Source: Escherichia coli
Lineage (GTDB): Bacteria; Pseudomonadota; Gammaproteobacteria; Enterobacterales; Enterobacteriaceae
DNA length: 64,000 nt
Strand: one strand, 5' to 3'
Assembly: GCF_044647545.1 (NCBI RefSeq)
Contig: NZ_CP172818.1
Shown: piece by piece, positions 8,971 to 29,937 of the stretch
How the letters are laid out: each line of letters opens with the position of its first letter
Position numbering within the stretch: the first letter of the stretch is position 1
Made by a program: the position numbers and the translations under genes
Notes under the pieces: model-generated
Seen by the model: the letters and a program-made list of their open reading frames with translations, nothing else
What the model was told of the DNA's origin: nothing
The model's database searches: none

Positions 8971-11900
8971 ATGAGCGGAAAACCGGCGGCGCGTCAGGGC
9001 GACATGACGCAGTATGGCGGTAGCATTGTCCAGGGTTCAGCCGGGGTACGTATTGGTGCCCCCACCGGCGTGGCCTGTTCGGTGTGCCCCGGCGGAGTAA
9101 CGTCCGGCCATCCGGTCAATCCGCTGCTCGGTGCAAAGGTCCTTCCCGGCGAGACAGACATCGCCCTGCCCGGCCCGCTGCCGTTCATTCTCTCCCGCAC
9201 CTACAGCAGTTACCGGACAAAAACGCCCGCGCCGGTGGGGAGCCTCGGCCCCGGCTGGAAAATGCCTGCGGATATCCGCTTACAGCTGCGCGATAACACA
9301 CTGATACTCAGTGATAACGGCGGCAGAAGCCTGTATTTTGAGCACCTGTTTCCCGGTGAGGACGGTTACAGCCGCAGCGAGTCACTCTGGCTGGTGCGCG
9401 GCGGCGTGGCGAAACTGGATGAAGGTCACCGGCTGGCCGCACTCTGGCAGGCGCTGCCGGAAGAGCTTCGCCTGAGTCCGCATCGTTATCTGGCGACGAA
9501 CAGTCCACAGGGGCCGTGGTGGGTACTCGGCTGGTGTGAGCGGGTGCCGGAGGCGGATGAGGTGCTGCCTGCGCCGCTGCCGCCGTACCGGGTACTGACC
9601 GGGCTGGTGGACCGCTTCGGGCGCACACAGACGTTCCACCGTGAGGCTGGCGGCGAATTCAGCGGCGAAATCACCGGCGTGACGGATGGCGCAGGCCGTC
9701 ACTTCCGGCTGGTACTGACCACGCAGGCGCTGCGGGCAGAAGAGGCCCGGCAGAAGGCCATTTCCGGCGGGACGGAACCGTCCGCTTTTCCTGATACCCT
9801 GCCGGACTACACGGAATATGGCCGGGACAACGGTATCCGTCTGTCTGCCGTGTGGCTGACACACGACCCTGAATACCCGGAGAATTTACCTGCCGCGCCG
9901 CTGGTGCGCTATGGCTGGACGCCACGCGGCGAACTGGCGGTGGTGTATGACCGCAGCAATACACAGGTGCGCAGCTTTACTTACGATGATAAATACCGGG
10001 GCCGGATGGTGGCGCACCGTCACACGGGCCGGCCGGAAATCCGTTACCGTTACGACAGTGACGGGCGGGTGACAGAACAGCTAAACCCGGCAGGCTTAAG
10101 CTACACGTATCAGTATGAGAAAGACCGCATCACCATCACCGACAGCCTGGACCGCCGTGAAGTCCTGCATACCGCAGGCGAAGGCGGCCTGAAGCGGGTG
10201 GTGAAAAAGGAACACGCGGACGGCAGCGTCACGCAGAGTCAGTTTGACGCGGTGGGCAGGCTTAAGACACAGACGGATGCCGCAGGCCGGACAACAGAAT
10301 ACAGCCCGGATGTGGTGACGGGCCTCATCACGCGCATCACCACGCCGGATGGCAGGGCATCGGCGTTTTACTATAACCACCACAGCCAGTTAACGTCAGC
10401 CACCGGGCCTGACGGGCTGGAAATACGCCGGGAATATGATGAATCCGGCCGTCTGATTCAGGAAACCGCCCCTGACGGCGATATCACCCGCTACCGTTAT
10501 GATAATCCACACAGTGACTTCCCCTGCGCAACGGAAGATGCCACCGGCAGCCGGAAAACCATGACGTGGAGCCGTTACGGTCAGTTGCTGAGCTTCACCG
10601 ACTGTTCCGGCTACCAGACCCGTTATGACCATGACCGCTTCGGGCAGATGACGGCGGTGCACCGCGAGGAAGGCCTGAGCCAGTGCCGCGCATACGACAG
10701 CCGTGGACAGTTAATTGCCGTGAAAGACACGCAGGGCCATGAAACGCGGTATGAATACAACATCGCCGGTGACCTGACCGCCGTCATTGCCCCGGACGGC
10801 AGCAGAAACGGGACACAGTACGATGCGTGGGGAAAGGCCATCCGTACCACGCAGGGCGGGCTGACCCGCAGTATGGAATACGATGCTGCAGGACGGGTCA
10901 TCCGCCTGACAAACGAAAACGGCAGCCACACCACCTTCCGTTACGATGTACTCGACCGGCTGATACAGGAAACCGGCTTTGACGGCCGCACACAGCGTTA
11001 CCACCACGACCTGACCGGCAAACTTATCCGCAGCGAGGATGAGGGGCTGGTCACCCACTGGCACTATGACGAAGCAGACCGCATCACGCAGCGAACGGTG
11101 AATGGTGAAACCGCAGAACAGTGGCGGTACGACGAACGCGGCTGGCTGACACAAATCAGCCATCTCAGCGAAGGGCACCGGGTGACGGTGCATTACGGGT
11201 ATGATGAGAAAGGCCGCCTGACCGGTGAGCGCCAGACGGTGCATCATCCGCAGACGGAAGCACTGCTCTGGCAGCATGAGACCAGACATGCGTACAACGC
11301 GCAGGGGCTGGCGAACCGCTGTATACCGGACAACCTGCCCGCCGTGGAATGGCTGACTTATGGCAGTGGTTACCTGGCAGGGATGAAACTCGGCGACACA
11401 CCGCTGGTGGAGTACACCCGCGACCGCCTGCACCGGGAAACGCTGCGCAGCTTCGGCCGTTATGAACTCACCACCGCTTATACCCCTGCCGGGCAGTTAC
11501 AGAGCCAGCACCTGAACAGCCTGCAGTATGACCGCGATTACACCTGGAACGACAACGGCGAACTCATTCGCATCAGCAGCCCGCGCCAGACCCGGAGTTA
11601 CAGCTACAGCGACTCCGGCAGGCTGACCGGCGTTCACACCACCGCAGCGAACCTGGATATCCGCATCCCGTATGCCACGGACCCGGCAGGTAACCGCCTG
11701 CCCGACCCGGAGCTGCACCCGGACAGCACCCTCAGCATGTGGCCGGATAACCGTATCGCCCGTGACGCGCACTATCTTTACCGGTATGACCGTCACGGCA
11801 GGCTGACGGAGAAAACCGACCTCATCCCGGAAGGGGTTATCCGCACGGATGATGAGCGGACTCACCGGTACCATTACGACAGCCGGCACCGGCTGGTGCA

Positions 11901-12750
11901 CTACACGCGGACACAATATGCAGAGCCGCTGGTCGAAAGTCGCTATCTTTACGACCCGCTGGGCCGCAGGGTGGCAAAACGGGTGTGGCGGCGTGAACGG
12001 GACCTGACGGGCTGGATGTCGCTGTCACGGAAACCGGAAGTGACCTGGTACGGCTGGGACGGCGACCGCCTGACCACGATACAGAACGACAGAACCCGCA
12101 TCCAGACGGTTTATCAGCCGGGGAGCTTCACACCACTCATCAGGGTCGAAACCGCCACCGGTGAGCAGGCGAAAACGCAGCGCCGCAGCCTGGCGGATGC
12201 GCTTCAGCAGTCCGGCGGCGAAGACGGTGGCAGTGTGGTGTTCCCGCCGGTGCTGGTGCAGATGCTCGACCGGCTGGAAAGTGAAATCCTTACTGACCGG
12301 GTGAGTGAGGAAAGCCGCCGCTGGCTGGCATCGTGCGGCCTGACGGTGGCGCAGATGCAAAACCAGATGGACCCGGTGTACACGCCGGCGCGAAAAATCC
12401 ACCTGTACCACTGCGACCATCGCGGCCTGCCGCTGGCGCTTGTCAGCACGGAAGGGGCAACAGAATGGTGCGCAGAATACGATGAGTGGGGCAACCTGCT
12501 GAATGAAGAGAACCCGCACCAGCTGCAACAGCTTATCCGCCTGCCGGGTCAGCAGTATGATGAGGAGTCCGGCCTGTATTACAACCGCCACCGCTATTAT
12601 GACCCGCTGCAGGGGCGGTATATCACTCAGGATCCGATTGGGCTGAAGGGGGGATGGAATTTTTATCAGTATCCGTTGAATCCGATATCAGACATCGAGC
12701 CCCCTGGGTTTATCTATGTGGGAGGATGCAAAATCGGGGGCATGTACTAA
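8971..12750 (+). CDS. rhsA: Rhs-family core protein (RhsA-type) with N-terminal PAAR-like region and YD repeats; very short atypical C-terminal tip
   Basis: 1259-aa ORF starting [26 protein letters not shown]; many YD/RHS repeats (RYRYDxxGR); conserved core end ...[29 protein letters not shown], followed by only [21 protein letters not shown] before the stop. GC-rich, unlike the AT-rich DNA downstream. Confidence 0.9.
12241..12686 (+). repeat. 3' end of rhs core; copy A of a dispersed direct repeat (copies at 14626-15069 and 17213-17298)
   Basis: About 450 bp nearly identical to 14626-15069; the last 80 bp or so also recur at 17213-17298. Boundaries are approximate. Confidence 0.8.
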
Positions 12751-13754
12751 TGGTCTTTGCGGCATATCAGCTGTGATGAGAGGTGCATAAGTTTTTCATA
12801 GACCGCATATGACGCCTTAATAACAATAAAATTAAAATATATTTTCAATAAAATCAATAGCCAAATAAAATAAATAAATAAATTTTCCCTGCACCTAGAA
12901 CGTGGAGAAAGTTAGTACATACTATGGATGCAATAGCATTGACATAATGGTGGGACGAATATTTTCACTTCGACTAATGTGGTAGATATCAGATTTGGAC
13001 GAAATATTTTAAGCAAAGATGAAAATAATTAAAATAAACAACGAATAAATACCACCCCATTAATAAACAATAGATAACCACGGGAAGGAAATAACAAACG
13101 GAAAAGGATCCGATGCCAGAGTTATCGGTAATATTAAAAAAAAAAATATAAATAAAATAAATAAATTTTATTTAGCACTCCCATTTTTTTTACACAACAT
13201 GGCCATAATAATAATTTTAAAATAATAATGACGGGAAAGAGAGAAAGAAGGTAAACTGTAAAAGGATTACAAAAATTTGGTCTACAAATACAGGTTATAG
13301 TAAAAAAATATTTTTTAGAATTTATTGTATCTTTTTTTTTTTACAACAACACAGGTCGCAGTGTAATTACAGAGATATTAAAATAATGCTCAAATTTATG
13401 AAGCAGTGAGGCAGAAGAATATACATATAAACGCTTCATTAAAACAAGTGGGTAATTTGGTTAAAAATAAACTAACATTGAATTACAATATATGTTAAAA
13501 TCAGGCAACCAAAAAGAAAAAATATAAAATATGATTAACAACAAGTCTTGTTGAAGGCACCATTCACTCAGACCAAATTGCTGGTGGGGTTTTTATTAGA
13601 AAATAGGCAAAAATGATGGGGTAATTCTGAATTTTGGCCACGGAAAATAAGTATGTAAGGATAATCAAACATCGTGTGCGCTGATGGCAGAGTAGGTGGA
13701 GGACTCCAGACAGTCAAACGATAAAAAAAGATAGCCTTTATGGAGGCTCCTGCA

Positions 13755-14597
13755 ATGTCAAATACATACCAGAAAAGAAAGGCAAGTAAAGAGTATGGTT
13801 TATATAATCAATGTAAGAAACTAAATGATGATGAATTATTTCGCTTACTTGATGATCACAATTCCTTGAAAAGGATTTCATCTGCCAGAGTATTACAGTT
13901 AAGAGGTGGGCAAGACGCTGTTAGATTGGTAATTGAGTTCTGCTCTGATAAAAATTATATCCGTAGAGATATCGGAGCATTTATACTCGGGCAAATAAAA
14001 ATTTGCAAAAAATGCGAAGATAATGTGTTTAATATTTTGAACAATATGGCATTGAATGATAAGAGCGCTTGCGTTCGAGCTACGGCAATCGAGTCAACGG
14101 CTCAGCGATGCAAGAAAAACCCAATTTATTCACCTAAAATAGTAGAACAATCTCAAATTACTGCTTTTGATAAATCGACTAATGTCAGACGTGCTACAGC
14201 ATTTGCTATTTCTGTTATCAATGATAAAGCAACAATTCCACTATTGATTAATCTGTTAAAAGATCCAAATGGAGATGTCAGAAACTGGGCCGCATTTGCA
14301 ATAAATATCAATAAATATGATAATAGTGATATTAGGGATTGTTTTGTGGAGATGCTTCAGGATAAAAATGAGGAAGTCCGTATTGAAGCAATAATCGGAC
14401 TTTCCTACAGAAAAGATAAAAGGGTTTTATCTGTTTTATGCGATGAGTTAAAAAAAAATACTGTTTATGATGATATCATTGAAGCTGCGGGTGAATTAGG
14501 TGATAAAACGCTACTTCCTGTTTTAGATACTATGTTGTACAAGTTTGATGACAATGAAATTATAACTTCCGCTATTGATAAGCTGAAGCGTTCATAG
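13755..14597 (+). CDS. yibA: HEAT/armadillo-repeat protein YibA
   Basis: 280-aa product from the ATG at 13755 (MSNTYQKRKASKEYGLYNQ...); repeated helical DxxVRxxAxxAL-like units; sits inside the Rhs accessory region as in K-12. Confidence 0.85.
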   Translation: MSNTYQKRKASKEYGLYNQCKKLNDDELFRLLDDHNSLKRISSARVLQLRGGQDAVRLVIEFCSDKNYIRRDIGAFILGQIKICKKCEDNVFNILNNMALNDKSACVRATAIESTAQRCKKNPIYSPKIVEQSQITAFDKSTNVRRATAFAISVINDKATIPLLINLLKDPNGDVRNWAAFAININKYDNSDIRDCFVEMLQDKNEEVRIEAIIGLSYRKDKRVLSVLCDELKKNTVYDDIIEAAGELGDKTLLPVLDTMLYKFDDNEIITSAIDKLKRS

Positions 14598-14638
14598 CGT
14601 GAGTTGCCTATGCACAGTGGGGTATTCCCGCCGGCACG

Positions 14639-15148
14639 GTGCAGATGCTCGATCGGCTGGAAAGTGAAATCCTGGCTGACCGGGTGAGTGAGGAAAGCCG
14701 CCGCTGGCTGGCATCGTGCGGCCTGACGGTGGAGCAGATGCAAAACCAGATGGACCCGGTGTTCACGCCGGCGCGAAAAATCCACCTGTACCACTGCGAC
14801 CATCGCGGCCTGCCGCTGGCCCTTATCAGCAAGGAAGGGACAACAGAATGGTACGCAGAATATGATGAATGGGGCAACCTGCTGAATGAAGAGAACCCGC
14901 ACCAGCTGCAACAGCTCATCCGCCTGCCGGGTCAGCAGTATGATGAGGAGTCCGGCCTGTATTACAACCGCCACCGCTATTATGACCCGCTGCAGGGGCG
15001 GTATATCACTCAGGATCCGATTGGGCTGAAGGGGGGATGGAATTTTTATCAGTATCCGTTGAATCCGATGACAACGGTTGATCCTCTTGGATTAAAATTT
15101 AAGGTAGAAGGTGACGGTCAGCTTTTGATTCTGCAATTGAATATTTGA
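14639..15148 (+). pseudogene. yibJ: Orphan Rhs core-end fragment (yibJ/rhsJ-like) with a truncated C-terminal tip
   Basis: GTG-initiated 169-aa ORF duplicating the last 150 residues or so of the rhsA core ([12 protein letters not shown]...[27 protein letters not shown]), then only 17 residues before the stop; no upstream core. Confidence 0.65.
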
Positions 15149-15209
15149 AACAAGATGATGAGATGAAAAAAAATAATTACGGCCCTTGAAAAGGATAAAC
15201 ACACTATAG

Positions 15210-15536
15210 TGGTTAGTTGTAATAATAATTATGATACACTCATTTAATCGATGGACAATGAGAATACACTGGGATCCTAAAGCTGCTCTATTGTGTACGG
15301 GTGTACAGAAAGATGGTAATTTTGATTTTAAAAATGACAATCTTGAGCCTGTAGTAGCATTAGGTCATGAAATAGCCCATGCAGAGGCTTATTAAATGAA
15401 GAATTCAGTGTTTATATGAAGCGAGTAAATACACCTGATCCTATATATGATAACGCAGAGGAAAGAAGAGTAATAACAGGTATTGAGAAACATGTTGCAC
15501 AAACATTAAAACAATGTGTTAGAAAAAACCACGGGG
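15210..15536 (+). pseudogene. Decayed remnant of a putative HExxH-motif toxin domain (two short frames separated by a frameshift)
   Basis: Frame 1 (about 15210-15396) translates ...WDPKAALLCTGVQKDGNFDFKNDNLEPVVALGHEIAHAEAY*; a second frame (about 15411-15536) gives MKRVNTPDPIYDNAEERRVITGIEKHVAQTLKQCVRKNHGE*. Read by eye; no ORF of 60 aa or more. Confidence 0.3.
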
Positions 15537-17284
15537 AATAATTTACCATGTACCTTAACAATATACGGTTGTAGTTGCTATATTTGTAAAGAGATTACCC
15601 CATCGAACCGGAATAAATGAAAATGACTATATTTTATGAGTTACTATCATCATTGAACAATCAGCATATAAGATAACCTCACCAAAAGCAGTTTAAACCA
15701 TGGTAAGTTGTAGAAGTGGGACATCTCGGCACCCCATTTTTTGTATGAAAAGTTACGAGAAATATATATTTTAATTTTTTTTTATATTATATATTAACCA
15801 AAATTAAAAAAACAACAATTTAAATAAAAAATTATTTATTACTTATATATTAACAATATCATAATAAATTCATTAAAACCGCTAGTTATAAATAATTATA
15901 AAAAAATCACAAATTGTTAAAATTTAATATTAATTATTTTAAAACAACCTAATGATATAAGATGGGGATTTATAGATCTAAGTGAAAGAGCTTGTTACTA
16001 TATTTTTATTTTTCTTTTGTTCCGGTGATTTGAATGGTATTAGTATGTTGAAAAAAATAGAAAAAAAGTGGAGGGGTCTAAGCCATAATATATCATTAGT
16101 GAAGAAAAGATGATGCATAAACTGAAATATAATATGGCAAAAAAGAATTCAAAGGCATCATTCTACTCCTGACTATTTTTCACATTTCCTCGAAGTTAAA
16201 TTGAAAATACGAGACGCAATATTAAAATTATACAAATGAATTCCAGAAAATCACGTAACGCTGCTTTTTTTACTAAACAATTCCATTTTATGTTTAAAAA
16301 TTAGATATCTATTAGAAGCTGTTTTTTATTGTTATAGATCATCAAAAATACTCCTTATAATAAAAGAACAAAATTGATTAAAAAATTGAAAATATTTATT
16401 ATCCATTACAACAATAAAAAATAAATTATATATTCTATTTGACTATTGGTTATTTCGTAGATGGTTGGGAAATATAACGATTATTGGAAAGATCAGCATC
16501 TCGGGATTTTTACAAGCAATATTGATTTTGAAAAGGGTATTCCTTTTCACGATACCATTCCAGATTTACCTGTATCAGATCTTGCATAATTTCACGAGAG
16601 CTTTATTAATTGGATGTGACATTCTCAGATGAAATAAAGCGTCATATTGTATGGAAACGATTTATACAAATCCCCAAATATTATTATGTAAAAATTTATC
16701 AAATAGAAATCAGACAGATGCGAAATCCAATGAGATCAAACAGCTACAAATTTAAAAATATTAAAAAAAATCATCACAAACGTATTAAAAATAAAAAATA
16801 CAAAAACATATTATTTATCTTAAAAGAAATCACCTAAATAAACCTAGAAAAATCATAAAATTAAATAACAAAATACATACCAATTATGAAAAATCACCAA
16901 AAAAATCTCTCACATTCATTCTATGAATTATTATTTCACTAATAAATCTAAAATCATTGCATCTCTCTCAATAATACAAACAAAAAAAAAAAAACGTCAA
17001 TATAATCATTCTTATTTAACCAAAGCTTCCACACAATCGAAACAGCACGGAAATAAGCCGCACTGGCGTCGACGCGGTAATGAATGAAGACGACTGCAAA
17101 ATAAGAAGAATCCGTAAACAGCAGAATTAGTTCTCAGGATACCGCACACGCTAGTAATATACGAATGATAAGTATTCAAGGCAGTGCTAAGACGTAATAT
17201 CGGTAACTTTTCCCGCCGCAGGGGCGGTATATCACTCAGGATCCGATTGGGCTGAAGGGGGGATGGAATTTTTATCAGTATCCG

Positions 17285-17758
17285 TTGAATCCGATAACTG
17301 ATATTGACCCGTTGGGATTAGCGACCTGTTTATACAGCATAACTTTAGGTATGCTTTCATGCGTTTCAGATACGTCAAGTGATGATAATTCTTATGGTGT
17401 GCTTACTATTTCAGTCGCCTCTGGTAATAATGGTAATAATATGCAATGTAAAAATAATCCTGGTTGTACACACTTACAAAATAGAGGCCCAATACCTCAA
17501 GGGGTATGGAGCTGGAATGTTAATGGTCCTGGAGCAACTAATAGAAAACCTAATGGTATACGTTTAGTACCGTCAGCAAATACAGAAACGTATAATCGTG
17601 ATGGATTTTTAACACATAGTTGTTTAAACGCTTTTGGTCCATCTTTAGGACCTCGATTCTGTTCCGAGGGGTGTATAACTGGTTCATCTAATGACATGCA
17701 AAAATTAAATGAGCTAATATTTTCAGAGCCAGATAGCACATTAACAGTGACGGACTAG
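17285..17758 (+). CDS. Orphan Rhs C-terminal toxin module; putative L,D-transpeptidase-like (YkuD/Tlde1-like) toxin domain
   Basis: Rhs core-end homology resumes at about 17213 ([36 protein letters not shown]); in-frame stop at 17204-17206 and no ATG before the TTG at 17285. The tip contains RGPIPQGVW and H-x15-SEGCI ([24 protein letters not shown]), resembling the LD-transpeptidase catalytic His/Cys signature. Confidence 0.6.
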
Positions 17759-17762
17759 AAAT

Positions 17763-18284
17763 ATGGCAAGGTTATTAACAATTGTGCTTTTTTTCTCTAT
17801 TTCTGCGAATGCAGTTACTGTAAACCAATTTCAGAGAGAGTTGGATTTGGCAGACAAGGCAATATTATGGGCACTAATATCAGCCAGTACCCAAGAGGGA
17901 CGAAAAGCGTGTTCACTTAGCTATTTTTCATGTAAAGCCGCAGAGGCTGAACTCGGACTGGCATATATGGCTGCTAATGATAACAAGGCATTTCTCACAT
18001 CCTTATCTAGAATAATGATGTACAAAATAGATGCTGGACTTTCCGAATCCTATACATGCTATTTATTAAGCAAGGGAAAGATCATAAGACCATATCTGAA
18101 GAATCTAAATCCACACCAACTTGTCGCTGATTGCATTGAAACTGTAAATAAAATAAAAGATAAAAATAAAAAAATCATTGATATAGATTCAGTTAATATT
18201 TGCAATGATAATAAAAATATAAATTGGAGAGTTAATAGTACTATTGTAGCCATTGATGATTCTATAAAATGCATCGATGAATAA
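17763..18284 (+). CDS. Putative secreted (periplasmic) immunity protein paired with the upstream orphan Rhs toxin
   Basis: 173-aa ORF starting 5 bp after the toxin stop; N-terminal signal-peptide-like segment MARLLTIVLFFSISANA followed by a Cys-containing soluble domain; AT-rich like the toxin tip. Confidence 0.5.
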   Translation: MARLLTIVLFFSISANAVTVNQFQRELDLADKAILWALISASTQEGRKACSLSYFSCKAAEAELGLAYMAANDNKAFLTSLSRIMMYKIDAGLSESYTCYLLSKGKIIRPYLKNLNPHQLVADCIETVNKIKDKNKKIIDIDSVNICNDNKNINWRVNSTIVAIDDSIKCIDE

Positions 18285-18741: not shown

Positions 18742-19878
18742 TCAATGATCCAAATAAAGATAATGCATCCAACTGGTCATTCTTAGCAGCACCTTCCGCA
18801 TCACCGAAACATGGCTGAAATGGTCGGAGTAAACTGCTACCTGGGCGTAAATGCCGTCGGGTAAGGCATCGATATCATCGTTAGGGTCCAGTTCAATGGT
18901 TCCCAGCACACCGTCCGTGCCGGGTACGACGGTTAATGATTGCAGTACCCCTTGCGCCTGATACGAACCGCCTGGCACGACAGGTAAAATACTAGTCAGT
19001 TTGCCGTGGAACACCTGCCCAGGTAGCGCGTTAAACACCACTTCCGCATCATCGCCGGGTTTCAGACGTAACAGCGAGTTCTGCCGAAATTGGGCGACAA
19101 TTTGCCGTTTTTGCTCGGGGATGAAAACCATCACCGGACGCAACGGCAAGGCAGCTGCGTATGTACCTGGGCGGATCAGTACCTGAGTAACGTAGCCATT
19201 GCTTGGTGCGCGAATGACAGTCTGCTCAAGGTTATATTTTGCTTCAGTAAGTTGCGCTCTTAAGCTCACAATCTGCGACTGCTCGCCGTTAACCATACTG
19301 TCGAGCTGGCTCTGGATCTGCGCCTGCTCCGCCACCGAGCCTTTCACCAGCGCGTCCTGCGCGAGGAAGTTTTGCCGCGCATCGTCGATGTCACGTTCCG
19401 AGAACGGATTCACTGCCGCCTGGCTGCCTTTCAGGTAACGTTGATAATTTTTAAACAGGCGGTCGCGCTCCGCTGAAACCTGGGTGGTGTTGGCCTGCGC
19501 TTCAGTGAGCTGCGCGCGCAGCGTCTTTATATTATGCGTCGCCGTCATCAGGTCAGCCTGAAGTCTGTCAACTCGCGCCTGGTAACGAACCGGGTCGAGC
19601 TTAAAAAGCACCTCGCCCTTCTGAATAAGCTGATTATTTTTGTCGGTGACTTCAGTAACAATTCCCGTCACCTGTGGCGTGATGGGGATCGCTATCACTG
19701 CCTTTTGCGCGGTAAAAGTGTAAGGGTGGTTGTAGTTCATCAACAAAATCAAACCACTCACCAGAAACACGCCTCCCAGCGCCGCCGTCGCCAGCGTCCA
19801 CTGATTTACCGGAATGCGGAAGATTTTAAAGACCGCCCACGCCAGCGCCACGTAAGTTAAAACAATCAATAGATCCAT
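18742..19878 (-). CDS. yibH: HlyD-family membrane fusion protein
   Basis: 378-aa ORF with N-terminal TM helix, long coiled-coil (RLQADL...LRAQLTEAQ) and C-terminal beta-barrel typical of HlyD/EmrA periplasmic adaptors. Confidence 0.85.
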
Positions 19879-19880
19879 AT

Positions 19881-20243
19881 TTAGATCTCCGGGAACGTGG
19901 AATAGTCAGTCTTTTTCTCGGCGGCGAGTTGATGCTCCAGCCGGGAAATTCGGTCAGAAAGTGCGGCGATTTCCGGGTCAGTCGCTTTCTCCTGCGACGC
20001 AACATGTGACTGCATACCCCAGCCACGCTCCGGTTGATAGAGCGTCGCCCAGATCCACAGGAACGGCCAGATAACATGCAGAGTAAACAGGCTCACCCAG
20101 CCCGCTGTATGAATAGCGTCGGCATGGGGGTGATTACGCTTTTTGGCAATCAGATAAGGGATGTCATGTATCGCGATGATTCCATAAAAAATCACCAGAA
20201 AGACGAAGATCAGCACTCCCAACGCGAAGTAGTTTAGAAACAT
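19881..20243 (-). CDS. yibI: DUF3302 inner-membrane protein
   Basis: 120-aa product from the ATG at 20243 ([45 protein letters not shown]...); the track ORF extends upstream to 20345. Confidence 0.85.
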
Positions 20244-20458
20244 ATCTGCCTCGGATTCACGTTTATCAGTGTTGTTTTTGGCTGGCAGCCAGATGGGAGT
20301 CGGGCTGATATTTTGACAATAATCCGGGTTGGCGATTCTCGCCATAACACCGAAGAATAATTTTTAGAGGTGATGAGTTGCTTAGTTACATAACGATTTT
20401 ATGACGAAGGCATAACATGCTGCAGATCACATCAGGTGAACGCCGTAAGAAAATATCT

Positions 20459-20474
20459 TGTGATTCAGATCACA
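20459..20474. promoter_or_regulatory. CRP binding site (TGTGA-N6-TCACA) in the mtlA promoter
   Basis: tgtgattcagatcaca, a perfect match to the CRP half-site consensus. Confidence 0.7.
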
Positions 20475-20502
20475 AAGATTCAACAAACTAACAAAACAAA
20501 AA

Positions 20503-20518
20503 TGTGACATTACTCACA
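20503..20518. promoter_or_regulatory. CRP binding site in the mtlA promoter
   Basis: tgtgacattactcaca, perfect TGTGA-N6-TCACA. Confidence 0.7.
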
Positions 20519-20575
20519 TTTAAATGCCATTTTTAGCGAAAATCGCCGCCTTGTTGCTTTTTTACACAAGAGTTT

Positions 20576-20591
20576 TGTGATGCACATCACG
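20576..20591. promoter_or_regulatory. CRP-like site in the mtlA promoter
   Basis: tgtgatgcacatcacg, one mismatch in the right half-site. Confidence 0.6.
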
Positions 20592-20629
20592 TCAATTACC
20601 TCTCTACCCCCTATATTTATGTGATTCAT

Positions 20630-20645
20630 ATCACACAAAAAGCCG
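20630..20645. promoter_or_regulatory. CRP binding site in the mtlA promoter
   Basis: tgtgattcatatcaca, perfect TGTGA-N6-TCACA about 135 bp upstream of the mtlA ATG. Confidence 0.7.
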
Positions 20646-20778
20646 TCGACTGGACAGTTAACCGATTCAGTGCCAGATTTCGCAGTATCTACAAGGTCCG
20701 GCTACCTCTGCCGCCACATTAACAAAAAACCTCGGGCTTCCAGCCTGCGCGACAGCAAACATAAGAAGGGGTGTTTTT

Positions 20779-22692
20779 ATGTCATCCGATATTAAGATCA
20801 AAGTGCAAAGCTTTGGTCGTTTCCTCAGCAACATGGTGATGCCAAATATCGGCGCGTTTATCGCGTGGGGTATCATCACCGCGTTATTTATTCCAACAGG
20901 GTGGTTACCGAACGAAACGCTGGCGAAGCTGGTCGGGCCGATGATCACTTATCTCCTGCCACTGCTGATCGGTTATACCGGTGGTAAGCTGGTAGGCGGC
21001 GAACGTGGCGGCGTAGTCGGTGCCATTACCACCATGGGCGTTATCGTCGGCGCAGACATGCCGATGTTCCTCGGTTCTATGATTGCAGGTCCGCTGGGCG
21101 GCTGGTGCATTAAGCACTTCGACCGCTGGGTAGACGGTAAGATCAAATCCGGTTTTGAAATGCTGGTGAATAACTTCTCCGCAGGCATCATCGGGATGAT
21201 CCTCGCTATTCTGGCATTTCTCGGCATTGGCCCGGTTGTTGAAGCCCTGTCTAAAATGCTGGCGGCGGGCGTTAACTTCATGGTTGTCCATGACATGCTG
21301 CCGCTGGCGTCTATCTTTGTTGAACCGGCGAAAATCCTGTTCCTCAACAACGCCATTAACCACGGTATCTTCTCGCCGCTGGGTATTCAGCAGTCCCATG
21401 AACTGGGTAAATCCATCTTCTTCCTGATTGAAGCTAACCCAGGTCCAGGTATGGGCGTGCTGCTGGCGTACATGTTCTTTGGTCGTGGTAGCGCTAAACA
21501 GTCTGCGGGCGGTGCGGCAATCATCCACTTCCTGGGGGGTATCCACGAAATCTACTTCCCGTATGTGCTGATGAATCCGCGTCTGATTCTGGCCGTTATC
21601 CTCGGCGGTATGACTGGCGTATTCACGCTGACTATCCTGGGCGGTGGGCTGGTTTCTCCGGCATCTCCGGGTTCTATCCTTGCTGTACTGGCGATGACGC
21701 CAAAAGGTGCTTACTTCGCTAACATCGCGGGTGTGTGTGCGGCGATGGCAGTCTCCTTCGTTGTCTCTGCTATTTTGCTGAAAACCAGCAAAGTGAAAGA
21801 AGAAGATGATATTGAAGCTGCTGCGCGTCGCGTTCAGGAAATGAAAGCTGAGTCTAAAGGTGCATCTCCGCTGTCTGCGGGCGATGTGACTAACGACCTG
21901 AGCCACGTACGTAAAATCATCGTTGCCTGTGACGCCGGTATGGGTTCCAGTGCGATGGGCGCAGGTGTGCTGCGTAAGAAAATTCAGGATGCAGGTCTGT
22001 CGCAGATTTCTGTTACTAACAGCGCGATCAACAACCTGCCGCCAGATGTGGACCTGGTCATCACTCACCGTGACCTGACCGAACGCGCTATGCGCCAGGT
22101 TCCGCAGGCACAGCATATTTCGCTGACCAACTTCCTCGACAGCGGCCTGTACACCAGCCTGACCGAACGTCTGGTTGCTGCCCAGCGCCATACTGAAAAC
22201 GAAGTAAAAGTGAAAGACAGTCTGAAAGACAGCTTTGACGATTCCAGTGCTAACCTGTTCAAGCTAGGCGCGGAGAACATCTTCCTCGGTCGCAAAGCGG
22301 CCACCAAAGAAGAAGCGATTCGTTTTGCTGGCGAGCAGCTGGTGAAAGGCGGTTACGTTGAGCCGGAATACGTTCAGGCGATGCTGGATCGTGAAAAACT
22401 GACCCCGACTTATCTGGGTGAGTCTATCGCGGTGCCACACGGTACGGTTGAAGCAAAAGATCGCGTACTGAAAACGGGCGTGGTGTTCTGCCAGTACCCG
22501 GAAGGCGTGCGCTTCGGTGAAGAAGAAGATGACATTGCCCGTCTGGTGATTGGTATTGCTGCCCGTAACAACGAGCACATTCAGGTTATCACCAGCCTGA
22601 CCAATGCACTGGATGATGAGACTGTCATCGAGCGTCTGGCACACACCACCAGCGTGGATGAAGTGCTGGAATTGCTGGCAGGTCGTAAGTAA
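20779..22692 (+). CDS. mtlA: PTS mannitol-specific EIICBA component
   Basis: 637-aa ORF ([31 protein letters not shown]...) with membrane EIIC, EIIB Cys region and C-terminal EIIA domain. Confidence 0.95.
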
Positions 22693-22786
22693 TCCAATCC
22701 TCCCCTCTCCTCACGGAGAGGGTTTGGGTGAGGGAAAAGCCTCACCCCAGCCCTCTCGGGTAAAAACATTGATGAAGGTTAATACT
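22693..22786. repeat. GC-rich intergenic palindromic element (two stem-loops) between mtlA and mtlD
   Basis: cctctcctcacggagagg and ggtgagggaaaagcctcacc inverted repeats; possible attenuator or REP-like element. Confidence 0.5.
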
Positions 22787-23935
22787 ATGAAAGCATTACA
22801 TTTTGGCGCAGGTAATATCGGTCGTGGCTTTATCGGTAAACTGCTGGCAGACGCGGGTATCCAACTGACGTTTGCCGATGTCAATCAGGTGGTACTTGAT
22901 GCCCTGAATGCCCGTCATAGCTATCAGGTTCATGTGGTTGGTGAAACCGAGCAGGTAGATACCGTTTCCGGCGTCAATGCTGTCAGCAGCATTGGTGATG
23001 ATGTCGTTGATCTGATTGCTCAGGTTGATTTAGTCACTACCGCCGTGGGCCCGGTTGTGCTGGAACGTATTGCCCCGGCAATCGCCAAAGGGCTGGTGAA
23101 ACGTAAAGAACAAGGTAATGAATCCCCGCTGAACATCATCGCTTGTGAAAACATGGTCCGCGGCACCACACAGCTGAAAGGACATGTGATGAACGCCCTG
23201 CCGGAAGATGCCAAAGCGTGGGTAGAAGAACACGTTGGCTTTGTTGATTCCGCCGTTGACCGCATCGTGCCGCCTTCGGCTTCTGCAACCAACGATCCGC
23301 TGGAAGTGACGGTAGAAACATTCAGCGAATGGATTGTTGATAAAACCCAGTTCAAAGGCGCGCTGCCGAACATCCCAGGCATGGAGTTAACCGACAACCT
23401 GATGGCATTTGTTGAGCGTAAACTCTTCACCCTGAATACAGGTCATGCTATAACCGCGTACCTCGGAAAACTGGCCGGTCATCAGACCATTCGTGATGCG
23501 ATTCTCGACGAGAAAATCCGCGCGGTGGTAAAAGGTGCGATGGAAGAAAGTGGTGCAGTATTGATCAAGCGCTACGGCTTTGACGCAGACAAACATGCGG
23601 CGTACATCCGGAAAATCCTCGGTCGTTTCGAGAACCCGTACCTGAAAGATGATGTAGAGCGCGTAGGCCGTCAGCCGCTGCGTAAACTGAGTGCTGGCGA
23701 CCGTCTAATCAAGCCACTGCTCGGAACGCTGGAATATGGTCTGCCACATAAAAACCTGATTGAAGGTATTGCCGCTGCAATGCACTTCCGCAGTGAAGAT
23801 GATCCGCAGGCTCAGGAACTGGCAGCACTGATCGCTGACAAAGGTCCGCAGGCGGCGCTGGCACAGATTTCCGGTCTTGATGCCAACAGCGAGGTTGTAT
23901 CCGAGGCGGTAACCGCTTATAAAGCAATGCAATAA
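22787..23935 (+). CDS. mtlD: Mannitol-1-phosphate 5-dehydrogenase
   Basis: 382-aa product from the ATG at 22787 ([20 protein letters not shown]...), Rossmann GxGxxG motif. Confidence 0.95.
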
Positions 23936-24522
23936 TGGTGGACCAGGCGCAGGATACCCTGCGCCCGAATAACAGATTGTCAGATATGCAGGCAACAATG
24001 GAACAAACCCAGGCCTTTGAAAACCGTGTGCTTGAGCGTCTGAATGCTGGCAAAACCGTGCGAAGCTTTCTGATCACCGCCGTCGAGCTTTTGACCGAGG
24101 CGGTAAATCTTCTGGTGCTTCAGGTATTCCGCAAAGACGATTACGCGGTGAAGTATGCTGTAGAACCGTTACTCGACGGCGATGGTCCGCTGGGCGATCT
24201 TTCTGTGCGTTTAAAACTCATTTACGGGTTGGGCGTCATTAACCGCCAGGAATACGAAGATGCGGAACTGCTGATGGCATTGCGTGAAGAGCTAAATCAC
24301 GACGGCAACGAGTACGCTTTTACCGACGACGAAATACTTGGACCCTTTGGTGAACTGCATTGCGTGGCGGCGTTACCACCGCCGCCACAGTTTGAACCTG
24401 CAGACTCCAGTTTGTATGCAATGCAAATTCAGCGTTACCAACAGGCTGTGCGATCAACAATGGTCCTTTCACTGACAGAGCTGATTTCCAAAATCAGCTT
24501 AAAAAAAGCCTTTCAAAAGTAA
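23935..24522 (+). CDS. mtlR: Mannitol operon repressor
   Basis: 195-aa ORF whose ATG overlaps the mtlD stop (TAATG); K-12 gene order. Confidence 0.9.
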   Translation: MVDQAQDTLRPNNRLSDMQATMEQTQAFENRVLERLNAGKTVRSFLITAVELLTEAVNLLVLQVFRKDDYAVKYAVEPLLDGDGPLGDLSVRLKLIYGLGVINRQEYEDAELLMALREELNHDGNEYAFTDDEILGPFGELHCVAALPPPPQFEPADSSLYAMQIQRYQQAVRSTMVLSLTELISKISLKKAFQK

Positions 24523-24532
24523 GTACTTTCGC

Positions 24533-24742
24533 TTACTTCTCCTCTACCTGTTTCGGACGATAAAGCTGACGATAATACTCCAGACGTTGTAGATATAACG
24601 GCACGCTTTCATCAGGTATTCCGGACGGAATCGCGTTACGGGGAGGTAGTTTTTTCAGATACTCCCGGAACGCCTGGCTCGATGCCATGAAATCTACGGC
24701 TTTATCGATAAGAAGCGGAACGTTTTCACCTAATTTGCCCAT
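24533..24742 (-). CDS. yibT: Small protein YibT
   Basis: 69-aa ORF ([31 protein letters not shown]...) between mtlR and yibL, as I recall for K-12 yibT. Confidence 0.65.
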
Positions 24743-25024
24743 GATGATATCTCCGTATTACCCCGCGCCGGGAATGCGCGGCCGCCAATTTTAGTTTAGA
24801 TCCCGGTATAAATGACATTAAGGAAAACGTGCTCAATCCTCAATAATCATCCGTTTTATTAACTATCTTTTTTCTTTAAATTTCTTAATTAATCAATAAA
24901 TTGCGTAGTTTTTAAGCATGTTAATGTTTACATTATAGAACTATTGCAATGTCATCAGTTGTGAACAAAGCACCTGGTCGCGCATACTAGGGGCTATAAA
25001 TTTATCTTTATCAGAAGCCATCAC

Positions 25025-25387
25025 ATGAAAGAAGTCGAAAAAAACGAAATCAAACGTCTCAGCGATCGCCTGGACGCCATCCGTCACCAGCAGGCCGATC
25101 TGTCGCTGGTTGAAGCCGCAGACAAATATGCCGAACTGGAAAAAGAGAAAGCCACTCTGGAAGCAGAAATTGCTCGCCTGCGCGAAGTTCACAGCCAGAA
25201 ACTCAGCAAAGAAGCGCAGAAACTGATGAAGATGCCGTTCCAGCGTGCAATCACCAAAAAAGAGCAGGCTGATATGGGCAAACTGAAAAAAAGTGTTCGC
25301 GGACTGGTGGTTGTGCACCCAATGACCGCGCTGGGCCGTGAAATGGGCCTGCAAGAGATGACAGGGTTCTCAAAGACTGCGTTTTAA
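25025..25387 (+). CDS. yibL: DUF2810 family protein YibL
   Basis: 120-aa charged coiled-coil-rich ORF ([23 protein letters not shown]...). Confidence 0.85.
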
Positions 25388-25423
25388 GAACACAGTATCT
25401 ACAGGGTGATTCTGCACATTCCT

Positions 25424-25460
25424 ATAGGCCGAGTAAGGTGTTCACGCCGCATCCGGCAAG
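25424..25460. repeat. REP element
   Basis: ataggccgagtaaggtgttcacgccgcatccggcaag, matching the REP consensus (reverse orientation). Confidence 0.65.
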
Positions 25461-25544
25461 ATAAGGCGCTCTGGATCAACAACCTAAGGGCAATTCTCTG
25501 ATGAGGATTGCCCTTTTCTTTACCAGACATCTCCCTCCACCAAG

Positions 25545-25759: not shown

Positions 25760-27415
25760 ATGAATCTCTGGCAACAAAACTACGATCCCGCCGGGAATAT
25801 CTGGCTTTCCAGCCTGATAGCATCGCTTCCCATCCTGTTTTTCTTCTTTGCGCTGATTAAGCTCAAACTGAAAGGATACGTCGCCGCCTCATGGACGGTG
25901 GCAATCGCCCTTGCCGTGGCTTTGCTGTTCTATAAAATGCCGGTCGCTAACGCGCTGGCCTCGGTGGTTTATGGCTTCTTCTACGGGTTGTGGCCCATCG
26001 CGTGGATCATTATTGCGGCAGTGTTCGTCTATAAGATCTCGGTGAAAACCGGGCAGTTTGACATCATCCGCTCGTCTATTCTTTCGATAACCCCTGACCA
26101 GCGCCTGCAAATGCTGATCGTCGGTTTCTGTTTCGGCGCTTTCCTTGAAGGAGCCGCAGGCTTTGGCGCACCGGTAGCAATTACCGCCGCATTGCTGGTC
26201 GGTCTGGGCTTTAAACCACTCTACGCCGCCGGACTGTGCCTGATTGTTAACACCGCACCAGTGGCATTTGGCGCGATGGGTATTCCGATTCTGGTCGCCG
26301 GGCAGGTAACAGGCATCGACAGCTTTGAGATTGGTCAGATGGTGGGGCGTCAGCTGCCGTTTATGACCATTATCGTGCTGTTCTGGATCATGGCGATTAT
26401 GGACGGTTGGCGCGGTATCAAAGAGACGTGGCCTGCGGTCGTGGTTGCAGGTGGTTCGTTTGCCATTGCTCAATACCTCAGCTCTAACTTCATTGGGCCG
26501 GAACTGCCAGACATTATCTCTTCGCTGGTATCACTGCTCTGCCTGACGCTGTTCCTCAAACGCTGGCAACCAGTGCGCGTATTCCGCTTCGGTGACTTGG
26601 GGGCGTCACAGGTTGATATGACGCTGGCTCACACAGGTTACACGGCAGGTCAGGTGCTGCGCGCCTGGACACCGTTTCTGTTCCTGACCGCCACCGTAAC
26701 GCTGTGGAGTATCCCGCCGTTTAAAGCCCTGTTCGCTTCAGGCGGTGCGCTGTATGAGTGGGTGATCAACATTCCGGTGCCGTACCTCGATAAACTGGTT
26801 GCCCGTATGCCGCCAGTGGTCAGCGAAGCGACAGCGTATGCCGCCGTGTTTAAGTTTGACTGGTTCTCTGCCACCGGTACCGCCATTCTGTTTGCTGCCC
26901 TGCTCTCGATTGTCTGGCTGAAGATGAAACCATCTGACGCTATCAGCACCTTCGGCAGCACGCTGAAAGAACTGGCTCTGCCCATCTACTCCATCGGTAT
27001 GGTGCTGGCATTCGCCTTTATCTCGAACTATTCCGGTTTGTCATCAACACTGGCGCTGGCACTGGCGCACACCGGTCATGCATTCACCTTCTTCTCGCCG
27101 TTCCTCGGCTGGCTTGGTGTCTTCCTGACCGGATCGGATACCTCATCTAACGCCCTGTTCGCCGCCCTGCAAGCCACTGCAGCACAACAAATTGGCGTTT
27201 CTGACCTGTTGCTGGTTGCTGCCAACACCACCGGTGGTGTCACCGGCAAAATGATCTCTCCGCAATCTATCGCTATCGCCTGTGCGGCGGTAGGCCTGGT
27301 GGGCAAAGAGTCTGATTTGTTCCGCTTTACTGTCAAACACAGCCTGATCTTCACCTGTATGGTGGGCGTGATCACCACGCTTCAGGCCTATGTCTTAACG
27401 TGGATGATTCCTTAA
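25760..27415 (+). CDS. lldP: L-lactate permease
   Basis: 551-aa product from the ATG at 25760 ([30 protein letters not shown]...), multi-TM lactate permease family. Confidence 0.95.
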
Positions 27416-28191
27416 TGATTGTTTTACCCAGACGCCTGTCAGACGAGGTTGCCGATCGTGTGCGGGCGCTGATTGATGAAAAAAACCTGGAAGCGGGCAT
27501 GAAGTTGCCCGCTGAACGTCAACTGGCGATGCAACTCGGCGTGTCGAGAAATTCACTGCGCGAGGCGCTGGCGAAACTGGTAAGCGAAGGTGTGCTGCTC
27601 AGTCGACGTGGCGGCGGGACGTTTATTCGCTGGCGTCATGACACATGGTCGGAGCAAAACATCGTCCAGCCGCTGAAAACGCTGATGGCCGATGATCCGG
27701 ATTACAGTTTCGATATTCTGGAAGCCCGCTACGCCATTGAAGCCAGCACCGCGTGGCATGCGGCAATGCGCGCCACACCAGGCGAAAAAGAGAAAATTCA
27801 GCTTTGCTTTGAAGCAACGCTAAGTGAAGACCCGGATCTCGCCTCACAAGCGGACGTTCGTTTTCATCTGGCGATTGCCGAAGCCTCACATAACATCGTG
27901 CTGCTGCAAACCATGCGCGGTTTCTTCGATGTCCTGCAATCCTCCGTGAAGCATAGCCGCCAGCGGATGTATCTGGTACCCCCGGTTTTTTCACAGCTGA
28001 CCGAACAACATCAGGCAGTCATTGACGCCATTTTTGCCGGTGATGCTGACGGGGCGCGTAAAGCAATGATGGCGCACCTTAGCTTTGTTCACACTACCAT
28101 GAAACGATTCGATGAAGATCAAGCTCGCCATGCACGCATTACCCGCCTGCCTGGTGACCATAATGAGCATTCGAGGGAGAAAAACGCATGA
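27415..28191 (+). CDS. lldR: GntR-family transcriptional regulator of the L-lactate operon
   Basis: 258-aa product ([52 protein letters not shown]...), wHTH plus FCD domain. Confidence 0.95.
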
Positions 28192-29378
28192 TTATTTCCG
28201 CAGCCAGCGATTATCGCGCCGCAGCACAACGCATTCTGCCGCCGTTCCTGTTCCACTATATGGATGGGGGGGCATATTCTGAATACACGCTGCGCCGCAA
28301 CGTGGAAGATTTGTCAGAAGTGGCGCTGCGCCAGCGTATTCTGAAAAACATGTCTGACTTAAGCCTGGAAACGACGCTGTTTAATGAGAAATTGTCGATG
28401 CCGGTGGCGCTAGGTCCGGTAGGTTTGTGTGGCATGTATGCGCGACGCGGCGAAGTTCAGGCTGCCAAAGCAGCGGATGCGCATGGCATTCCGTTTACTC
28501 TCTCGACGGTTTCCGTTTGCCCGATTGAAGAAGTGGCTCCGGCTATCAAACGTCCGATGTGGTTCCAGCTTTATGTGCTGCGCGATCGCGGCTTTATGCG
28601 TAACGCACTGGAGCGAGCAAAAGCAGCGGGTTGTTCGACACTGGTTTTCACCGTGGATATGCCGACACCGGGCGCACGTTACCGTGATGCGCATTCTGGG
28701 ATGAGCGGCCCAAATGCGGCAATGCGCCGCTACTTGCAGGCGGTGACGCATCCGCAATGGGCGTGGGATGTGGGCCTGAACGGTCGTCCGCATGATTTAG
28801 GTAATATCTCGGCTTACCTCGGCAAACCGACCGGACTGGAAGATTACATCGGCTGGCTGGGGAATAACTTCGATCCGTCCATCTCATGGAAAGACCTTGA
28901 GTGGATCCGCGATTTCTGGGATGGCCCGATGGTGATCAAAGGGATCCTCGACCCAGAAGATGCGCGCGATGCAGTACGCTTTGGTGCTGATGGAATTGTG
29001 GTTTCTAACCACGGTGGCCGCCAGCTGGACGGTGTGCTCTCTTCTGCCCGTGCACTGCCTGCTATTGCAGATGCGGTGAAAGGTGATATCGCCATTCTGG
29101 CGGATAGCGGAATACGTAACGGGCTTGATGTCGTGCGTATGATTGCGCTCGGTGCCGACACCGTACTGCTGGGTCGTGCTTTCCTGTATGCGCTGGCAAC
29201 AGCGGGCCAGGCGGGTGTAGCTAACCTGCTAAATCTGATCGAAAAAGAGATGAAAGTGGCAATGACGCTGACTGGCGCGAAATCGATTAGCGAAATTACG
29301 CAAGATTCGCTGGTGCAAGAGCTGAGTAAAGCGCCGGCGGCGGCGCTGGCTCCAATGGCGAAAGGGAATGCAGCTTAA
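28188..29378 (+). CDS. lldD: FMN-dependent L-lactate dehydrogenase
   Basis: 396-aa ORF ([29 protein letters not shown]...), alpha-hydroxy acid oxidase family; overlaps lldR by 4 bp. Confidence 0.95.
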
Positions 29379-29425
29379 GGGTTAGATGAATATCTGCTAT
29401 CCTGCCCCCGCACTAAGGGGGCAGT

Positions 29426-29899: not shown

Positions 29900-29908
29900 T
29901 TACTGTAT

Positions 29909-29937
29909 GCCGGATAGATGATTACATCGCATCCGGC
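29909..29937. terminator. REP-like hairpin between convergent trmL and cysE (probable bidirectional terminator)
   Basis: gccggat(ag)...atccggc inverted repeat with a 15-nt loop. Confidence 0.5.

Follow-up and report, generated by a model that had tools for sequence, protein, structure and literature searches.

Introduction

The operator of the Escherichia coli mannitol (mtl) operon contains five sites for CRP (Ramseier & Saier 1995, cited in PMC13421365), and the mtl start site is the one mapped with S1 in 1983, as cited in the same paper. Lee et al. (Nucleic Acids Res, July 2026; PMC13421365) sum up and extend the earlier work on mtl, and the studies covered there include Ramseier & Saier 1995, Figge et al. 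1994 and Lee & Saier 1983. The published centres of the five sites are −262.5, −219.5, −175.5, −102.5 and −58.5, and successive sites are 43, 44, 73 and 44 bp apart (PMC13421365). Expression of mtl requires CRP, and Fis and Cra bind as well, Cra to the promoter region, where it represses (PMC13421365). In K-12, electrophoretic mobility shift assays (EMSA) revealed cAMP-dependent binding of CRP to the mtl sites. CRP1, in which 7 of 10 core bases match, shows poor occupancy and is dispensable. Chromosomal mutants demonstrated that CRP2, CRP4 and CRP5 are indispensable to mtl expression and that CRP3 contributes; mutation of CRP2 abolishes both mtl expression and growth on mannitol (PMC13421365). 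Looping and anti-silencing have been considered as reasons why CRP2, at −219.5, is needed (PMC13421365).

The repressor MtlR has no DNA-binding domain, and neither MtlR nor HPr alone binds the mtl operator (PMC13421365). Supershift of CRP-DNA complexes by MtlR requires two bound CRP dimers 43-46 bp apart; a pair 73 bp apart gave no supershift and became positive once it was shortened to 44 bp (PMC13421365). The malK operator, re-spaced to 44 bp, is turned into an MtlR target, and an arbitrary spacer sequence works (PMC13421365). CRP-dependent MtlR binding was shown with DNA from K-12, Salmonella and V. cholerae, and R167 and L178 of MtlR are required; the MtlR-CRP interface is an AlphaFold3 prediction with two point mutants, with no solved complex (PMC13421365). 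Dephosphorylated EII-Mtl sequesters MtlR at the membrane, which constitutes induction, and dephospho-HPr competes for the same interface (PMC13421365). The five-site array, the roles of its sites and the mechanism of MtlR docking are already known.

Related systems share parts of this design. CRP5 (−58.5) and CRP4 (−102.5) of mtl are like a tandem class I arrangement, although the proximal site, at −58.5, misses the canonical class I position by about 3 bp. CytR, with a DNA-binding domain of its own and operator octamers (GTTGCATT), acts together with CRP pairs separated by about 52-53 bp, unlike MtlR, which lacks such a domain and requires pairs at 43-46 bp. The two are alike in that CytR-CRP complexes (deoP2, cdd, nupG and others) also have an anti-activator, placed between or against tandem CRP dimers on DNA, that masks CRP-polymerase contacts (PMC13421365). 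The remote, phase-dependent CRP site of pap resembles mtl CRP2 at −219.5 (PMC13421365), but mtl differs from both pap and the tandem class I arrangement in requiring four sites. The malE-malK region, with four CRP sites, is another dense multi-CRP array that forms a higher-order nucleoprotein complex; its adjacent sites, however, are 34 bp apart, and MtlR therefore does not bind there unless the sites are re-engineered to 44 bp (PMC13421365). Sequestration of Mlc by EIICB-Glc follows the same logic as induction of mtl, in that a dephosphorylated PTS transporter at the membrane removes a repressor from DNA (PMC13421365), but Mlc contacts DNA itself, whereas CRP is the only route of MtlR to DNA.

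A dense CRP array upstream of mtlA

The window analysed here is a stretch of 64,000 bases of E. coli DNA. Positions 19800-21200 match E. coli chromosomes, for example NZ_CP033850.1, with 100% identity, and 5,404 of 5,426 complete E. coli genomes contain a single copy of the region. The annotation of the identical record gives the gene order as minus-strand yibH and yibI followed by plus-strand mtlA, mtlD and mtlR (Table 1). The array lies within the 535-bp divergent intergenic region, between a minus-strand open reading frame that ends at 20243 and a plus-strand open reading frame that starts at 20779; positions 20400-20778 make up the 3' two-thirds of it. MtlR as encoded in the window matches the K-12 protein with 100% identity, R167 and L178 included, and solved structures of MtlR are available (6kcr, 3brj). 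We conclude that 20416-20686 is very probably the operator-promoter that serves mtlADR, the mannitol operon of E. coli, activated by CRP and controlled by docking of MtlR on CRP pairs.

A search for the exact motif TGTGA-N6-TCACA (TGTGANNNNNNTCACA) returned 20459-20474, 20503-20518 and 20620-20635, with no other match in the 64,000-base window. The expected count was 0.08, and 0 of 100 shuffles of the 64-kb window gave three. Allowing one mismatch added a single match in the window, 20576-20591 (TGTGATGCACATCACG), whose right half reads TCACG. A first-pass annotation of this DNA had reported four CRP motifs, three of them perfect, within 200 bp. The count is right and the span is 177 bp, but the fourth motif, which had been placed at 20630, starts at 20620. 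The additional half-sites noticed near 20420 are real as well, and they belong to a fifth, degenerate site at 20416-20431 (CATGCTGCAGATCACA) that has 7 of 10 core bases, with TCACA at 20427-31 as its right half. Thus the four near-perfect motifs stand, but the array has five sites. Their centres match the published spacings of 43/44/73/44 bp exactly, and therefore the four motifs are the published CRP2-CRP5 (PMC13421365), with transcription starting at about 20686; the proposal of a cAMP-dependent mannitol operon was sound. A CRP-S reading (Sxy-dependent; TGCGA-N6-TCGCA) was rejected because all cores read TGTGA/TCACA.

Table 1. Sites, promoter elements, conserved blocks and genes of the mtl region (window positions; centres also given relative to the transcription start)
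Feature	Position	Strand	Centre	Sequence	Remarks
CRP1	20416..20431		20423.5 (−262.5)	CATGCTGCAGATCACA	7/10; weak, distal; 43 bp from CRP2
CRP2	20459..20474		20466.5 (−219.5)	TGTGATTCAGATCACA	Perfect core; 13.0 bits
CRP3	20503..20518		20510.5 (−175.5)	TGTGACATTACTCACA	Perfect core; 44 bp from CRP2; top score of the window
CRP4	20576..20591		20583.5 (−102.5)	TGTGATGCACATCACG	9/10; 73 bp from CRP3
CRP5	20620..20635		20627.5 (−58.5)	TGTGATTCATATCACA	Perfect core; promoter-proximal activator site; 44 bp from CRP4
−35 hexamer	20651..20656	+		TGGACA	Read from sequence; fits a start 58.5 bp downstream of the CRP5 centre
Extended −10	20671..20679	+		TGcCAGATT	Read from sequence
Putative start of transcription (20686), with a 5' untranslated region of 93 nt	20686..20778	+			Computed from published site centres
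Cra (FruR) consensus match	20658..20671	−		ACTGAATCGGTTAA	Perfect match; between −35 and −10
AACAAA block, CRP2-CRP3 spacer	20482..20487	.		AACAAA	ACAAA in exact register in 33/38 Enterobacterales rows
TGT-N9-ACA with T-tract, 73-bp spacer	20553..20567	.		GTTGCTTTTTTACAC	G...C in 23/38 rows, T-run in 29/38
C-run, CRP4-CRP5 spacer	20607..20611	.			Strand-independent G/C run, conserved across taxa
mtlA	20779..22692	+			Mannitol PTS enzyme IICBA; annotation of identical record
mtlD	22787..23935	+			Mannitol-1-phosphate 5-dehydrogenase; annotation
mtlR	23935..24522	+			Repressor without DNA-binding domain; annotation; docks on paired CRP dimers (PMC13421365)

The sites were scored with a 22-bp, symmetrised CRP matrix built from 16 textbook non-mtl sites (training median 13.7 bits), the consensus of which is the textbook AAATGTGATCTAGATCACATTT. 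With this matrix, CRP1-CRP5 scored 8.95, 13.0, 19.9, 14.8 and 18.7 bits and took places 17, 5, 1, 3 and 2 among 63,979 positions. The scores of CRP2-CRP5 (13.0-19.9 bits) are within the range of the training sites, and CRP1 is marginal. Four of the five top scores of the window thus lie upstream of mtlA, in agreement with the earlier description of an unusually dense array. In first-order Markov simulations, sites of at least 13 bits occurred by chance at 1.26 per 64 kb, so that four within 180 bp are far beyond chance. Over the whole window there were 10 hits of at least 10 bits, compared with 10.2 by chance. Because hits elsewhere in the window are at chance level, the signal is one of clustering, and it is overwhelming. 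Likewise, the only pairs of sites of at least 8 bits that lie 43-46 bp apart anywhere in the window are CRP1-2, CRP2-3 and CRP4-5.

The chance-level total of hits of at least 10 bits could be taken to mean that the motifs are a by-product of AT-rich intergenic DNA or of local duplication, without a regulatory role. We consider the probability of this vanishingly small, since the three exact sites all fall inside 177 bp, the highest matrix scores gather in the array, the half-sites are invariant while the spacers drift, the spacing is conserved across bacterial orders, and binding and mutant data have been published (PMC13421365, PMC4287617). Occupancy by CRP is documented for these sites in vitro by EMSA on the K-12 allele (PMC13421365) and in vivo by ChIP-seq in ETEC H10407 (PMC4287617). 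In the ETEC table, one peak lists TGTGATCTGAATCACA and TGTGATCTACAGCATG, the reverse complements of CRP2 and CRP1, and is assigned to yibI; a second peak, assigned to mtlA, lists TGTGATTGATATCACA and TGTGATGAACGTCACG, the K-12 alleles of CRP5 and CRP4 (PMC4287617). This is a real, unusually dense regulatory array that could be recognised from raw sequence. We infer that the window allele would behave like the K-12 and ETEC operators.

Divergence from K-12 and other E. coli

The locus agrees with the K-12 mtlADR operator in location, gene order, the five sites and their 43/44/73/44 spacing, half-sites, promoter, 5' untranslated region and MtlR. It differs in being an allelic variant: relative to MG1655, the 535-bp intergenic region carries 14 substitutions and a single indel, with five of the changes in N6 spacers and no indel between sites. 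All 50 half-site bases were unchanged, as against 5 changes among 30 bases in the N6 spacers. From 20642 to the mtlA start there was no difference from MG1655, and the identity extends to 20790. At the 4-fold degenerate sites of mtlA, mtlD and mtlR, 52 of 643 positions (8.1%) were divergent from MG1655, whereas the remaining regulatory positions of 20400-20778 showed 4 changes in 349, about sevenfold slower. Comparison of 5/30 with the 8.1% at 4-fold sites indicates that the N6 spacers drift at a roughly neutral rate, and hypervariability in excess of neutral drift was rejected, as 5/30 is not clearly above 8.1%. The spacers stand out on account of the constraint on the remainder of the region. 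The CRP half-sites are under purifying selection.

Thirty E. coli genomes sampled across the ranking of 5,404 aligned over 390-391 bases with no length change. The window allele is in the minority, with 157 of 5,404 genomes at least 99% identical to it. In seven further sequences the sole half-site change was TCACG to TCGCG in CRP4 of one ETEC isolate. Strain GPEC1054 carries unrelated DNA upstream of ~20443, so that CRP1 is lost and CRP2-5 are kept, which is in line with CRP1 being dispensable. Downstream, the gap between mtlA and mtlD is 94 bp in the window and 229 bp in K-12.

Spacing of the sites across species

Operator layouts in only four other species were examined in PMC13421365. To extend this survey, GTDB species genomes were scanned with MtlA residues 1-300, and 80 loci were kept among the matches listed: 65 gammaproteobacterial ones and 15 from Firmicutes. 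For each locus, 700 bp upstream of mtlA were scanned with the matrix at a threshold of at least 9 bits. Among the matches listed, 62 of the 65 gammaproteobacterial loci had at least one adjacent pair of sites 43-46 bp apart, 47 had two such pairs, 43 had the layout pair-(72 to 74)-pair, and 33 had exactly 44/73/44. The mean number of sites per locus, again among the matches listed, was 4.08 in Gammaproteobacteria versus 0.20 in Firmicutes, and no 43-46 bp pair was detected in 15 of 15 Firmicutes mtlA loci. The spacing histogram for the matches listed peaked at 44 bp (92 intervals), with further peaks at 43 (17), 45 (12) and 73 bp (42).

Among the matches listed, the 33 loci with exact 44/73/44 spacing came from Escherichia, Citrobacter, Enterobacter, Klebsiella, Serratia and Yersinia, and further from Pantoea, Erwinia, Pectobacterium, Hafnia and Budvicia. 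Close variants among the matches listed were 45/73/44 in Aeromonas and 44/73/43 in some Vibrio; Orbaceae had a single 43-44 bp pair, and one Pasteurellaceae locus had three sites (40/44). CRP1 passed the 9-bit threshold in some genera only. The CRP cores were near-invariant across 35 loci, the core of CRP2 included. The species survey is a modest extension of PMC13421365 and agrees with it. It goes slightly beyond the literature consulted in showing how widely and how rigidly the 44/73/44 layout is kept over dozens of genera, and in the spacer features that are locked in register with it.

The species comparison also bears on which genes the distal sites serve. CRP1 and CRP2, and perhaps CRP3, could serve mainly the divergent yibI-yibH genes, leaving CRP4 and CRP5 alone for mtlA: the sites lie in the shared 535-bp divergent intergenic region, and the ChIP-seq peak with the CRP2 and CRP1 sequences was assigned to yibI in ETEC (PMC4287617). 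However, a yibI homologue was located within 1.5 kb upstream at only 11 of 80 loci, while the pair-(72-74)-pair layout was kept at 43 of 65 gammaproteobacterial loci, both among the matches listed. The rarity of yibI next to a retained layout indicates that the array travels with mtlA and not with yibI. Moreover, the loss of mtl expression and of mannitol growth on CRP2 mutation (PMC13421365) speaks against this division of labour, and a promoter scan together with inspection revealed no minus-strand sigma-70-like promoter at the canonical distance from CRP1 or CRP2. We therefore judge a main role in yibI-yibH expression improbable and assign the whole array to mtlA; the distal sites may have an additional effect on yibIH.

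Promoter and probable Cra site

The sequence CTGGACAG at the −35 position is conserved in Enterobacteriaceae and GTGCCAGATT at the extended −10 is invariant there; in Serratia, Yersinia, Pantoea and Hafnia, TGnTAGAGT replaces the extended −10 in the same register within 1 bp. A generic promoter and terminator scan missed this weak CRP-dependent promoter and returned chance-level hits only. A second, class II promoter working through CRP3, with GAAAAT at 20538-43 as its −10, was considered and dropped because the 20538-43 stretch is not conserved.

The minus-strand match at 20658-20671 is perfect with respect to the Cra consensus, RSTGAAWCSNTHHW. The window contains 3 hits to RSTGAAWCSNTHHW compared with 0.5 expected, and the block AACGATTCAG at the match is conserved in Enterobacteriaceae only. 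Its place between the promoter elements would suit a repressor, and judged from its sequence it probably corresponds to the published Cra site.

MtlR docking and regulation of the operon

The first-pass annotation had stated that MtlR operators were not identified. The literature offers an answer, in which the CRP pairs 43-46 bp apart themselves serve as the docking platform (PMC13421365). We weighed the opposite possibility that the array is a CRP activation module only and that MtlR uses a separate DNA operator elsewhere in 20400-20778. The conserved non-CRP blocks at 20482-87, 20553-67 and 20607-11 could in principle be protein sites for such a purpose, but the blocks are not the same in the two MtlR-binding pairs. 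In addition, a Pfam search of MtlR returned the MtlR domain PF05068 alone, and MtlR by itself does not bind but supershifts CRP-DNA, for which an arbitrary spacer sequence serves at 44-bp spacing (PMC13421365). A separate MtlR operator is thus largely refuted, and we regard it as highly improbable.

With MtlR docking on CRP pairs, regulation of the operon would proceed as follows. At high cAMP, CRP dimers would occupy CRP2-CRP5 upstream of a weak sigma-70 promoter. CRP5 (−58.5) and CRP4 (−102.5) would act like tandem class I/III activator sites and recruit RNA polymerase, and the upstream pair CRP2/CRP3 would also be required, probably in an architectural role. The same array would be the 'operator' of MtlR, which would dock on CRP1-2 (43 bp) and on CRP2-3 and CRP4-5 (44 bp each), with the 73-bp CRP3-4 interval not qualifying. 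Bridging by MtlR would block the contacts between CRP and polymerase. Transport of mannitol would dephosphorylate EII-Mtl and draw MtlR to the membrane, relieving repression, and dephospho-HPr, as a glucose signal, would compete with EII-Mtl and restore repression. Cra probably adds repression through the site between −35 and −10.

Conserved spacer elements and geometry of the array

The loci stack without gaps because the spacing is fixed, and the stack revealed conserved blocks outside the CRP sites that are not reported in PMC13421365 (Table 1). In the CRP2-CRP3 spacer, ACAAA at 20483-87 keeps a distance of 18 bp to the centre of CRP2. A conserved A/T block at 20450-57 is directly 5' of CRP2. 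The block in the 73-bp spacer contains a T7 run, lies 24 bp from the CRP4 centre and reads TGTA...TACA in Aeromonas. Runs of at least four C or G, on either strand, were detected in the CRP4-5 spacer at 33 of 45 loci, compared with 1 of 45 for the CRP2-3 spacer.

Two identities were considered for the block at 20553-67. A search with a degenerate Fis pattern, allowing at most one mismatch, gave no match in 20400-20700 of the window allele; the block has, read by eye, 2 mismatches to the pattern in the window allele, and it has 1-2 in many species. As a weak guess, it might be a Fis site. A CytR operator at 20553-60 (GTTGCTTT) was rejected because the sequence is not conserved in other genera. 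The features of a CytR/CRP operator are absent here: the spacings are 43/44/73/44, and GTTGCTTT is a single octamer-like sequence (7/8) without a partner.

The distance between the two pairs was 73 bp in almost all Enterobacterales and in Aeromonas, among the matches listed. Departures from 72-74 bp among the matches listed were 63 bp in Edwardsiella and 51 bp in a subgroup of Vibrio, Salinivibrio and Aliivibrio. With 10.5 bp to the helical turn, the distances of 73, 63 and 51 bp correspond to 6.95, 6.0 and 4.86 turns, near whole numbers. With two or three independent departures, this is suggestive of whole-turn phasing of the inter-pair distance.

It is possible, although we hold it only tentatively and think it on balance doubtful, that the array is a single fixed-geometry nucleoprotein assembly and more than two independent MtlR-binding CRP pairs. 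In its favour are the near-integral helical distances, the blocks held at set distances from CRP2 and CRP4, and the G/C run of the CRP4-5 spacer. If so, CRP3 and CRP4 would have to face the same side of the helix, and DNA-shape elements, or an extra contact such as the polymerase alpha C-terminal domain, Fis or another factor, would help to fold the upstream pair onto the promoter. Such a geometry could explain the requirement for CRP2 at −219.5. The rigid layout and the register-locked features provide testable handles on activation by far-upstream CRP.

The 5' untranslated region and downstream sequence

The predicted fold of the 5' untranslated region was unremarkable (z = −0.22). An Rfam scan of 20000-25500 at E ≤1 gave no match in the regulatory region or the 5' untranslated region. 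A weak REP-like naRNA4 match to Rfam was observed at 25427.

Sequence constraint within the CRP array

When window positions 20400-20778, the region of the five CRP sites (CRP1-CRP5) upstream of mtlA, were compared with MG1655 and further E. coli sequences (L084-L088), we found that the N6 centres of the sites had changed at 5 of 30 positions, approximately the rate at the four-fold sites of mtlA, mtlD and mtlR (8.1%). The CRP half-sites (0/50 changed) and the remaining regulatory DNA of this region (4/349) were strongly constrained, and the promoter together with the 5' untranslated region (20642-20790) showed no difference from K-12. The sole half-site polymorphism among the E. coli sequences compared came from one isolate, ETEC L3_E36 (L087), in which an A-to-G change at the equivalent of window position 20589 converts the right half of CRP4 from TCACG to TCGCG. 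This may be an artefact of sequencing or, alternatively, a change that impairs an essential site. In E. coli GPEC1054 (L089), unrelated DNA takes the place of the window sequence 5' of CRP2 (equivalent to positions below about 20443), and the strain lacks CRP1 while retaining CRP2-CRP5 intact. Judged by its sequence, this strain is a natural 'CRP1 deletion'.

The two pairs, CRP2-CRP3 and CRP4-CRP5, lay 73 bp apart at nearly all mtlA loci among the matches listed, as in the window (20510-20584). This separation was 63 bp in Edwardsiella (L033); in a single subgroup of Vibrionales, from Vibrio, Salinivibrio and Aliivibrio (L042, L048-L050, L052), it was 51 bp. Because 73, 63 and 51 bp each approximate an integer number of helical turns, these distances hint at a phasing constraint linking CRP3 to CRP4.

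When mtlA upstream regions were stacked, features other than CRP sites were also found to be conserved at fixed register within the array among the matches listed (Table). An ACAAA motif in the CRP2-CRP3 spacer (block 20482-20487) was present in 33 of the 38 Enterobacterales rows among these matches. Furthermore, a G/C run of at least 4 on either strand occurred in the CRP4-CRP5 spacer (20600-20613) at 33 of 45 loci, compared with 1 of 45 for the CRP2-CRP3 spacer, again among the matches listed.

Cra consensus matches

The Cra consensus is RSTGAAWCSNTHHW. Three perfect matches were observed in the window, against 0.5 expected; those in yibH and lldP are probably due to chance.

Neighbouring regions

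The gap between mtlA and mtlD measures 94 bp in the window (22693-22786) versus 229 bp in MG1655, and an additional REP-type insert, missing from the window strain, is presumably present there in K-12. Relative to K-12, the DUF3251 and YadA-like autotransporter region represents variable accessory content. At 25427-25467, a weak Rfam match to naRNA4 (27.3 bits, below the gathering score of 59.5) probably marks a REP element lying downstream of yibL. The rhs locus contains the complete rhsB-type gene together with yhhH and yibA, followed by orphan RHS core fragments.

Table. Positions of features in and around the mtlA upstream region
Feature	Position	Strand	Location or remark
rhs locus	8606-18284		upstream of yibH
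ISAs1 transposase	16069-17205		rhs locus, after orphan RHS core fragments
Orphan tlde1-domain toxin and Imm57 immunity gene	17351-18284		rhs locus
Cra consensus matches	19401-19414 and 33409-33422		one within yibH, one within lldP
A/T block	20450-20457		5' of CRP2; conserved, fixed register
TGT-N9-ACA/T7-tract block	20553-20567		73-bp spacer; conserved, fixed register
Cra consensus match	20658-20671	minus	between mtl -35 and -10 elements
DUF3251 gene, then 5.2-kb YadA-like trimeric autotransporter gene	25946-31925		between yibL and lldP
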